From a phage: DNA of 20,506 nt. The notes beneath the pieces are model-generated. The model saw only the letters and a program-made list of their open reading frames with translations, did not search any database and was not told where the DNA came from. Shown piece after piece: positions 10,739-12,187 of this stretch. How positions within the stretch are numbered: position 1 is the first letter of the stretch; each line of letters starts with the position of its first letter. The stretch is from NCBI GenBank assembly GCA_026165385.1, contig GCA_026165385.1_4524.3. The stretch is one strand, 5' to 3'. The position numbers and the translations under genes are program-made.

Positions 10739-11158
10739 TTATGCGAAAGCAGCTGGGCTATATTTTTTAATTTGGAATTCAGGAACTACCATGAACTGTC
10801 CAGCGAAAACGATGTTATAAAGCTTAACACCATCTTCTACCCAACGGTCGCTAATAAATCCGGCGATTTGCTTAGTTTTCCATGGCGTTCCATCAGTTGC
10901 CGCAGCAATAGTGAATTCATGGTCTTTTTCAACAGAAACTGATCTGCATAGTCCCCATTTGAACGCTTTTTCTTCTGGTTCAATGAATTGGCTTGAGACG
11001 TAGCCAATATTACCATTAGCATCACGAACTTTAACTTGGTTACGACCAAAAACCGGATCACTCACAGAAAGAACTTCAACCAACTTCCCGGCAACTTTAG
11101 AGCGAGAAGCAACAGATACATATACGTAATCACCTGTAGAGAGATTTACAATATTCAT
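10739..11158 (-). CDS. Modular paralog 1, 139 aa: KOW-like N-terminus plus shared C-terminal module
   Basis: N-terminal GDYVYVSVASRSKVAGKLVEV resembles a KOW motif; C-terminal GFISDRWVEDGVKLYNIVFAGQFMVVP is shared with the next two ORFs; SD AAGGAATTATT-ATG. Confidence 0.75.
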   Translation of the reverse strand: MNIVNLSTGDYVYVSVASRSKVAGKLVEVLSVSDPVFGRNQVKVRDANGNIGYVSSQFIEPEEKAFKWGLCRSVSVEKDHEFTIAAATDGTPWKTKQIAGFISDRWVEDGVKLYNIVFAGQFMVVPEFQIKKYSPAAFA

Positions 11159-11167
11159 AATAATTCC

Positions 11168-11632
11168 TTAAGCTTTACGAGGAGACACATAGCGAGTGAT
11201 TTCAGATTCTTTAACAACTCGGAAGTCACCTAAGAATACGATATTGTATAACTTTTCACCATCTTCAACCCATTGGTCACTAATGAAGCCACACATAGTA
11301 TCAGTTTTGCTTGGATAACCGTATTCATCGATGAAGTCAAATTCTTTATCAGTCTGGAATTCAACACCTTTACACAAGGCCCATTTGAACTGTGTAGTAG
11401 GCTCAACGATATCGCTTGAAGCAAAATGAGCGCTCACATGAGTTTCCAAGAATTTAGGACTTACATAAGCGAACTGAGTTTCAGTTTTTCCAGAACTAGG
11501 AATGATTCGAACTTTAACTTCTTTAACACGTCCCATGCCGTTAGTACGAAGCCCTGCTACTTCAACCAGACGACCTGCAGCTTTAGAACGAGAAGCAGGA
11601 GATACACGAAGGATTTCACCAATAGTAATCAT
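11168..11632 (-). CDS. Modular paralog 2, 154 aa: KOW-like N-terminus plus shared C-terminal module
   Basis: Shares ASRSKAAGRLVEV, FKWALC and C-terminal GFISDQWVEDGEKLYNIVFLGDFRVV with paralog 1; SD AAAGAGAGAAATTAT-ATG. Confidence 0.75.
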   Translation of the reverse strand: MITIGEILRVSPASRSKAAGRLVEVAGLRTNGMGRVKEVKVRIIPSSGKTETQFAYVSPKFLETHVSAHFASSDIVEPTTQFKWALCKGVEFQTDKEFDFIDEYGYPSKTDTMCGFISDQWVEDGEKLYNIVFLGDFRVVKESEITRYVSPRKA

Positions 11633-11659
11633 AATTTCTCTCTTTGTTTAAATTGAATT

Positions 11660-11688
11660 CACTATACTCCATCCATCCTTGGATGTAC
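11660..11688 (-). promoter_or_regulatory. T4-type early promoter: TGTACA -35, 17-nt spacer, TATAGT -10; near duplicate of the promoter at 12219..12248
   Basis: Plus strand cactatactccatccatccttggatgtacaac against cattatactccaaccatccttggttgtaaac at 12219. Confidence 0.55.
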
Positions 11689-11692
11689 AACA

Positions 11693-12187
11693 TTAATTTA
11701 GAATATTAACCACAGCACTACGTGGAACTACACTAAAATCACCTGCATGAACAACATTTAGAAGTTCAACACCGTCTTCAATCCACTGATCAGTTACCCA
11801 TCCACTCACTGGACCTGCGAACGGACGTCGAATTGAAATGGCTTTACACAACAAATCAGTAGGCTCAATAGGCTTAATCAGAGTACCGTACATACAAGCG
11901 ATATCCATATCAATACAGATGTCTTTAACGGGTTCTACTTCTTCAATCAACAGTTCAAAGTCTGTGCTTGGAAGGGCGGTAGTAGAAATTGTACCATATG
12001 AATTTTTAATTTCTAAGAATAACCAAGGGCCTTCAGCTTGTTTGATGAAGTTAACAATAGTGAAACTATTACCTTGAGTGGCACCTAAAATTTCACAAAA
12101 CTTTTCATAAGCTCGCACTGAAGCACCATACCAGTTAATTTGTTTTTCGTCTTTCAGGATGTAAGTAGCCGTAGTATTGATATTCAT
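11693..12187 (-). CDS. Modular paralog 3, 164 aa: unrelated N-terminal domain plus the shared C-terminal module
   Basis: Only the C-terminus (GWVTDQWIEDGVELLNVVHAGDFSVVP) matches paralogs 1 and 2; SD ACAGGAAAAACATT-ATG. Confidence 0.75.
   Translation of the reverse strand: MNINTTATYILKDEKQINWYGASVRAYEKFCEILGATQGNSFTIVNFIKQAEGPWLFLEIKNSYGTISTTALPSTDFELLIEEVEPVKDICIDMDIACMYGTLIKPIEPTDLLCKAISIRRPFAGPVSGWVTDQWIEDGVELLNVVHAGDFSVVPRSAVVNILN

Follow-up and report, generated by a model that had tools for sequence, protein, structure and literature searches.

The DNA analyzed here, a stretch of 20,506 nucleotides referred to below as the window, carries the motB region of an RB69-like (Mosigvirus) phage of the T4 type. 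Three tandem genes in this region end in a common C-terminal module. The best joint explanation, to which we give a probability of roughly 85%, is that this RB69-like motB region encodes members of the MotB/MotB.1 family, that the three genes are old paralogs, and that their products act in the manner of T4 MotB.

The gene family, the C-terminal domain common to its members, the variety of their N-terminal domains, and the presence of two motB genes plus one motB.1 in RB69 were known already. Patterson-West et al. (Viruses 2021;13:84, Hinton laboratory, PMC7827196) aligned 102 phage homologs and described MotB ('Category 1') and MotB.1 ('Category 2') as having the C-terminal domain in common but differing in the N-terminal domain that precedes it. 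Accordingly, hundreds of deposited genomes carry MotB/MotB.1 annotations. Since both the family and the RB69 arrangement have been published, the main finding by itself adds little.

Gene content of the motB region

The three genes, designated wA, wB, and wC, occupy positions 10739–12187 (wC through wA), exactly the limits given in the initial annotation, and all lie on the minus strand. The region comprises the following genes:

12941–14254, minus strand: Dda helicase, 437 aa
12254–12931, minus strand: DexA exonuclease, 225 aa (Pfam Rv2179c-like, PHROG 255)
11693–12187, minus strand: wA, intact MotB.1 ortholog, 164 aa
11168–11632, minus strand: wB, MotB ortholog, 154 aa
10739–11158, minus strand: wC, second and shorter MotB paralog, 139 aa, with the two-domain layout of wB
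10155–10679, minus strand: wD, motB.2 homolog, 174 aa
9870–10142, minus strand: cef, 90 aa as listed
9457–9888, minus strand: GoF-like gene, 143 aa

Transcription runs leftward through dda, dexA, motB.1 (wA), motB (wB), wC, the motB.2 homolog (wD), and cef. The 2.85 kb around the three genes showed 96–98% identity to many Mosigvirus (RB69-like) genomes. Moreover, the RB69 locus RB69p009–p013 has an identical gene order and content (motB.1, motB, a MotB-like gene, and motB.2), differing in that motB.1 of the RB69 reference is split into 132-aa and 29-aa ORFs whereas wA is intact. A search against anti-defense and defense families gave no match in PADLOC and no useful match in NCBIfam.

Identity of the three genes and comparison with T4

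wB aligned with T4 MotB over its full length (47% identity, 1.7e-43). wC showed 37% identity to T4 MotB and 43% identity to wB (BLASTP 2e-32 over the full length), and matched PHROG 1671 (MotB) at 6.6e-51. wA showed 37% identity to the part of MotB.1 annotated in the T4 reference (4.5e-27, BLASTP), 46% identity over the full length to the intact MotB.1 of phage T4T (tblastn), and a match of 2.5e-82 to PHROG 2333 (MotB.1) over residues 1–164. In addition, wD was 34% identical to T4 MotB.2 (1.8e-15). All three proteins passed the curated cut-off of 25 bits for PF17613 (motB), with scores of 35.8 bits for wA, 132.2 bits for wB, and 75.6 bits for wC (5.3e-21). The match on wB was full length, and that on wA (9e-9) covered residues 84–159, that is, the C-terminal part only.

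The features of MotB proper, namely a basic KOW/SH3-like N-terminus, the SRSKxAGxLVEV sequence, and a hairpin insertion, were found in both wB and wC. wA falls outside MotB proper, having another N-terminal domain and no hairpin insertion, and its homology to MotB.1 extends over the full length, including the DPTDLLCKA...GWVTDQWIEDGVELLNVVHAG C-terminal domain. wB is the MotB ortholog, wA is an intact MotB.1 ortholog, and wC is a second MotB paralog. Thus the possibility, considered in the initial annotation, that all three genes are ordinary orthologs of distinct T4 genes holds for wB (MotB) and wA (MotB.1); wC alone has no T4 counterpart.

The T4 gene order is dda, dexA.2, dexA.1, dexA, motB.2, motB.1, motB, and cef. 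Compared with this order, dexA.1 and dexA.2 are missing between dda and dexA in the window, an extra motB copy is present, and the motB.2 cassette follows the motB genes instead of preceding motB.1. The three genes had been assigned to the slot that T4 uses for motB and for dexA.1/dexA.2. The first half of this assignment was borne out, the T4 equivalents being motB.2, motB.1, and motB downstream of dexA. The second half was not: T4 dexA.1 and dexA.2 are situated upstream of dexA, and their proteins have no similarity to proteins of the window, so a relationship to them was rejected.

Like T4 motB, wB and wC are presumably early genes downstream of dexA, and they resemble it in their two-domain layout and in their position before cef. 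They differ from T4 MotB in charge, with a pI of 9.2 for T4 MotB against a nearly neutral wB and an only mildly basic wC, and both the linker and the insertion are shorter in wC than in T4 MotB. Linker length varies among MotB orthologs. As for MotB.1, both the T4 gene and wA lie directly upstream of motB. wA is 21 residues longer than the intact T4 protein, the additional residues including the DMDIACMYGTLIKP segment. It has a predicted promoter of its own, whereas T4 motB.1 follows motB.2 without a promoter; and, because the motB.2 cassette is located elsewhere, wA differs from T4 motB.1 in standing directly after dexA.

The common C-terminal module

The motif reported in the initial annotation was present in all three proteins, as GWVTDQWIEDGVELLNVVHAGDFSVVPRS in wA, GFISDQWVEDGEKLYNIVFLGDFRVVKES in wB, and GFISDRWVEDGVKLYNIVFAGQFMVVPEF in wC. 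The similarity was highly significant and did not fall away on alignment: BLASTP gave 3e-10 for wA against wB and 6e-11 for wA against wC, and the profile–profile comparison of the two subfamilies using hhalign gave a probability of 98.9% (E = 3.9e-17). Together with the PF17613 matches, these values upheld the claim that the three ORFs end in the same module. The module core is located as follows:

11717–11803, minus strand: module core in wA, residues 129–157
11204–11290, minus strand: module core in wB, residues 115–143
10775–10861, minus strand: module core in wC, residues 100–128

The alignment also indicated that the module is longer than initially stated, starting one strand earlier with LLCKAISI in wA and (FKW)ALCKGVEF in wB, and that a hairpin of about 15 residues is inserted in modules of the MotB type. 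Conservation within the family is highest in the module. The conserved core of the module reads G-[WFY]-x-x-D-x-W-x-E-[DEN]-G-x-x-L-x-N-x-V, with L, G, D, W, E, G, L, N, V, G, and V as invariant residues, which are of acidic, aromatic, or aliphatic type. Neither the full MotB profile nor the profile of the C-terminal domain matched any PDB entry by sequence.

The N-terminal halves were also as described, a KOW-like N-terminus in two of the proteins and another N-terminus in the third, with ASRSK-x-AG-x-LVEV found in wB and wC only. One element had been misplaced: FKW-x-LC, which was assigned to the KOW-like N-terminus, belongs to the C-terminal domain according to the domain limits of the AF2 models.

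Putative base insertions in the reference motB.1 genes

Comparison of motB.1 among deposited sequences revealed differences in two reference genomes. The T4 reference (NC_000866.4, AF158101.6) has an extra G and reads ATTGGAAGATGG, compared with ATTGAAGATGG in T4T and MT984581, and in 11 T4, RB55, and RB59 records, including these two, the region was matched over 600 rather than 601 nt. The frame of the T4 reference ends in ...DQWIGRWR*, and its +1 frame continues as EDGVELLNVVHAGEYSVVPRSAVVAILN. The intact T4 MotB.1 is 143 aa long (P0011, found on 256 contigs), compared with 119 aa for the reference version.

Compared with the window and with phage moskry, motB.1 of the RB69 reference contains two additional T residues, and it is because of these that the gene appears there as a 132-aa motB.1 followed by the 29-aa ORF RB69p012. 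The latter is the 'Category 3' peptide of PMC7827196. Judged from these sequence comparisons, the 119-aa T4 MotB.1 and the 29-aa peptide of RB69 are apparently products of single-base insertions in the two references. The insertions in the T4 and RB69 references hide the module that is common to MotB and MotB.1.

Neither PMC7827196 nor PMC12152347 mentions a frameshift in motB.1. In the latter study, MotB.1 was a gene-synthesized protein of 13.8 kDa, and NC_000866.4 is the sole T4 sequence cited in its DNA methods. In experiments and models based on the reference MotB.1, three of the five strands that make up the common domain would be missing.

Domain structure and charge

The structures of wB and wA were predicted using AF2 from alignments of 22 and 25 sequences, respectively, with a mean pLDDT of 80 for both. 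The model of wB consists of a basic KOW/SH3-like β-barrel (residues 1–63), a disordered or low-confidence linker (64–80), and the C-terminal domain (82–150). The model of wA consists of an α/β N-terminal domain (residues 1–84) of five strands and two helices, a low-confidence linker (about 86–110), and a C-terminal β domain (about 112–164). In both models the C-terminal domain has five strands.

The N-terminal domain of MotB.1 has been described as having an LSm-like fold, a bent five-stranded antiparallel sheet, in common with GoF and Frd.2 (Kim et al., CSBJ 2025, PMC12152347), a relation that sequence searches did not find (PMC12152347). Correspondingly, BLASTP gave no match between the N-terminal domain of wA and the GoF homolog of the window. 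A Foldseek search against viral models returned, by name, only MotB.1 and MotB relatives.

The charge of the domains differed among the three proteins. In wB, the N-terminal domain has a net charge of +6 (pI 10.6) and the C-terminal domain −4, for a whole-protein pI of 6.7. In wC, the corresponding net charges are +2 and +1 (whole-protein pI 7.8), and in wA they are −4 and −2 (whole-protein pI 4.5, net −9). The C-terminal domain of T4 MotB has a net charge of +1. As wB as a whole is nearly neutral, its affinity for DNA may differ from that of T4 MotB.

These values bear on which domain contacts DNA. From HHpred, residues 69–149 of MotB were proposed to be related to the cold-shock/eIF5A OB-fold, and both the KOW domain and the OB-fold C-terminal domain were put forward as possible sites of DNA binding (PMC7827196). 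If the C-terminal module were itself a non-specific DNA-binding OB-fold, the three proteins would be three DNA binders with accessory N-terminal domains. Such a role would be consistent with the module being the most conserved part of the family and with the slightly basic C-terminal domains (net +1) of T4 MotB and wC. However, wA and wB have acidic C-terminal domains, wA as a whole has a pI of only 4.5, the invariant D, W, E, G, L, and N are acidic or aromatic rather than basic, and the profile search of PDB sequences returned no match. We therefore regard an OB-fold that binds DNA as somewhat unlikely. The comparisons of charge and fold suggest instead that the common domain may be an acidic SH3/Tudor-like barrel and not a basic OB-fold. 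On the grounds of charge, non-specific DNA contact in MotB would be made mainly by the basic KOW-like domain.

Age of the paralogs and domain shuffling

wA, wB, and wC are old paralogs under purifying selection, not recent duplicates. Within the window, the module core showed 55–76% amino-acid identity compared with 55–68% nucleotide identity. Third-codon positions under identical residues matched in 44–56% of cases, and the longest exact run was 10 nt. Since synonymous sites are scrambled, there is no recent duplication or conversion tract. Moreover, the dN/dS ratios against IMG/VR relatives were 0.12–0.13 for wA and wC. Genes of the wC type were present in 208 phage records at an identity of at least 80%, with none in the 60–80% class, and genes of the wA type at 90–99% identity in 150 records.

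A recent tandem duplication, or homogenization by gene conversion with the promoters as its scar, would account for three adjacent, co-oriented genes with a common module, two of them behind promoters that are 76% identical over 66 nt. This explanation is very improbable. Apart from the randomized synonymous positions of the coding cores, on which it was rejected, the three copies are separately conserved across hundreds of genomes, the motB/motB.1 pair is already present in T4, and the unrelated N-terminal domains of wA and wB stand directly downstream of the similar promoters. It is equally improbable that wC or wA is a decaying, redundant, pseudogene-like remnant: wC is indeed shorter than the other copies and lacks its own promoter, and motB.1 is truncated in the T4 reference annotation and split in that of RB69, but both reading frames are intact here with the low dN/dS and the wide conservation given above, on which this status was rejected, the disruptions in T4 and RB69 consist of single-base insertions that other isolates do not have, and wC has a good Shine–Dalgarno sequence 9 nt past the wB stop codon.

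Old paralogy is accompanied by exchange of N-terminal domains. C-terminal domains of the MotB.1 type, 74–86% identical to that of wA, were found behind several architectures:

Architecture 1: LSm-type N-terminal domain, in proteins of 143–169 aa
Architecture 2: an N-terminal DxDxxxxY strand followed by an inserted domain of another type, about 100 aa long, in proteins of about 180 aa
Architecture 3: two domains of the kind seen in architecture 2, in proteins of about 248 aa
Architecture 4: KOW-type N-terminal domain joined to a MotB.1-type C-terminal domain (P0059 and P0084)

Domain shuffling, as the arrangement was initially termed, is thus a fair description, the module standing behind at least four N-terminal architectures, including the combination of KOW with a MotB.1-type C-terminal domain. 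To look for relatives beyond T4-type phages, the profile of the C-terminal domain was searched against 1.84 billion representatives; it gave only 36 clusters, of which 24 reached E ≤ 1e-10. Among the matches retrieved, the better ones were short KOW-plus-C-terminal-domain proteins or MotB.1-type proteins, and the most distant members had canonical KOW N-termini. Because the clusters number only 36 and the most distant carry KOW, the family appears narrow, and the KOW domain joined to the C-terminal domain is, as far as sequence searches indicate, probably the ancestral form. Weak matches over multiple stretches, such as P0241, were repeat proteins in which the similarity is limited to a GY[AV]TEQWV-like hairpin, and they were taken as chance.

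Predicted early-promoter cassettes

Two predicted early-promoter cassettes were identified in the locus:

12188–12253, minus strand: predicted cassette before wA, with TTTACA-17-TATAAT at 12247–12219 followed by a ribosome-binding site
11633–11692, minus strand: near-duplicate predicted cassette before wB, with TGTACA-17-TATAGT at 11689–11661

In a sigma-70-type scan, the wA promoter matched the consensus at 11 of 12 positions and the wB promoter at 9 of 12. Both have 17-nt spacers, as do T4 early promoters. The sequences preceding wA and wB were 76% identical over 66 nt, and the 26-nt core CCAAGGATGG[A/T]TGGAGTATA[A/G]TGAAT, in which the two copies differ at 2 positions, occurs only these two times in the window, with 0 occurrences expected by chance. 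The near-duplicate promoters seen in the initial annotation are therefore real. The promoter scan found no promoter belonging to wC, which has only a ribosome-binding site and follows wB after a 9-nt gap; wC is probably co-transcribed with wB.

Duplication of these genes did not produce the likeness of the promoters. In a related IMG/VR genome, three genes of about 320 codons lie in tandem, and two of them also have the cassette GTTTACAACCAAGGATGGTTGGAGTATAATGAAT upstream; one related contig contains four copies of the cassette, two of them before unrelated tandem genes. As the promoters resemble each other more closely than the coding modules do, and as the cassette stands before unrelated genes elsewhere, the promoters are not a scar of motB duplication. 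This also argues against the recent tandem duplication considered above. The wA and wB promoters are two occurrences of a repeated early-promoter cassette, of the type known as PeSLs, or promoter-early stem-loop cassettes (PMC2839356, PMC4122927).

Like PeSLs, they are repeated intergenic early promoters of the sigma-70 type that have a hairpin next to or within them, are situated in a hyperplastic early region, and occur at several loci. In contrast to PeSLs, the wA and wB hairpins are short (6 bp), lie within the promoter spacer, and are no better than those of shuffled sequence (z = −0.6 and −0.7), which falls short of a stable stem-loop, and the G/C-tract terminator stem of RB49 and phi1 is absent here. 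Owing to these weak hairpins, the two cassettes agree with the definition of a PeSL only in part. No intrinsic terminator was found in either cassette.

In the cassette of wD, the predicted promoter lies inside a strong hairpin (−23.9 kcal/mol, z = −5.8), which has the stem-loop feature of PeSLs, and the Shine–Dalgarno sequence is located within its 3′ arm. The same promoter–hairpin structure, with different stem sequences, was observed for T4 motB.2 and in RB69.

Proposed action and implications

Expression of T4 MotB is toxic to E. coli. The protein binds DNA tightly and non-specifically, whether the DNA is modified or not, and when DNA is present it is purified together with H-NS and StpA. 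It also changes the footprints of H-NS, relieves the repression of some host genes under H-NS control, and increases the burst size twofold (PMC6070864, PMC7827196). These DNA-binding, toxicity, H-NS/StpA, and burst-size properties are known for T4 MotB only (PMC6070864, PMC7827196). Deletion of T4 motB.1 caused no laboratory phenotype (PMC12152347).

By analogy with the T4 experiments, wB and probably wC would coat DNA non-specifically in the style of nucleoid-associated proteins, disturb H-NS/StpA–DNA complexes, and modestly raise the burst size. wA, wB, and wC would be early products of the predicted sigma-70-type promoters before wA and wB. The acidic C-terminal barrel may serve to bind a common partner or to self-associate, and in wA this C-terminal function would be combined with another N-terminal domain, possibly one directed at RNA.

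A more far-reaching interpretation would take the module as an acidic SH3/Tudor-like docking or oligomerization domain that does not bind DNA and that delivers KOW heads (for DNA) and LSm-like heads (perhaps for RNA) to one partner, for example H-NS/StpA–DNA filaments or the other paralogs, so that the three proteins would form one mixed assembly; the published work on T4 MotB.1 would then have used a protein without most of this domain through a single-base error in the reference. Taken as a whole, this interpretation is unlikely and is put forward tentatively.

The argument from charge and fold would alter the choice of domain for tests of DNA binding and of partner binding. Together with the corrections to the reference sequences, it provides a minor but usable addition for those who work on these proteins.

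Gene models of the motB region

Comparison of motB.1 in the T4 reference genome (NC_000866.4) with the comparison loci L003 and L004 revealed a single additional G at ATTGGAAGATGG (within L001 2143-2330, minus strand). This extra G shortens the annotated MotB.1 to 119 aa, with loss of the final 28 residues of the small C-terminal module shared by the MotB paralogues; other T4 isolates encode a MotB.1 of 143 aa. The form described in published MotB.1 work is the 13.8-kDa protein as annotated in the T4 reference (PMC12152347). Similarly, motB.1 of the RB69 reference NC_004928 (L005 2860-3045, minus strand) contains two single-T insertions relative to the window (11680-11860) and phage moskry, so that in RB69 the gene appears as two ORFs, one of 132 aa and one of 29 aa (RB69p012). 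The latter peptide has been counted in the literature as its own category of MotB-related peptide (PMC7827196).

Several database entries aligned with the window's MotB, wB (alignment A4), carry an N-terminal extension of 14-21 residues; the start of these entries was probably called wrongly, as the extension would be encoded across the promoter. The inter-domain linker of wB (residues 64-80; window 11390-11440) was modelled as disordered, and short indels, EEVAPAHFASN for example, make its length differ between close orthologues (A4).

A start was also reconsidered for cef, listed as follows:

9870-10142, cef ORF, 90 aa

The first 15 residues of this ORF lie outside its match to Pfam T4_Cef, which starts at residue 16; relatives have cef annotated as 75 aa, and the upstream part of the ORF overlaps a promoter-like site. 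The true start is probably an internal ATG approximately 15 codons downstream.

Repeated promoter cassettes and the motB.2 hairpin

The promoter cassette of wA, the MotB.1 orthologue, recurs in a related phage genome (IMGVR_UViG_2974739009_000001, L012 3690-4810) in front of two genes from a tandem array of three paralogues, each of ~320 codons and of unassigned function. Two more sets of repeated intergenic promoter/ribosome-binding-site cassettes (repeat families D1 and D2) are spread over the window:

982-1035, 1494-1547 and 10119-10172, first group
1479-1509, 10102-10132, 10684-10714, 15340-15370 and 16079-16109, second group

One of these lies before cef, where an 8-bp hairpin spans its -10 region.

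The motB.2 cassette, comprising promoter, hairpin and gene, is located downstream of the motB copies in the window (10155-10679) and in RB69, whereas in T4 it is placed between dexA and motB.1 (L001 2662-3162). In the window phage, dexA.1 and dexA.2 are not present between dda and dexA. The promoter of the MotB.2 homologue wD is:

10680-10738, minus strand, TTTACT-16-TATTAT

It sits within a hairpin of -23.9 kcal/mol (z -5.8) with an 18-bp stem, and the wD Shine-Dalgarno sequence GAGGAG is part of the 3' arm. The same promoter-hairpin structure was found at T4 motB.2 and in RB69, with stem sequences that differ. Such a hairpin would hide the wD ribosome-binding site in read-through transcripts and leave it exposed in transcripts from the local promoter.
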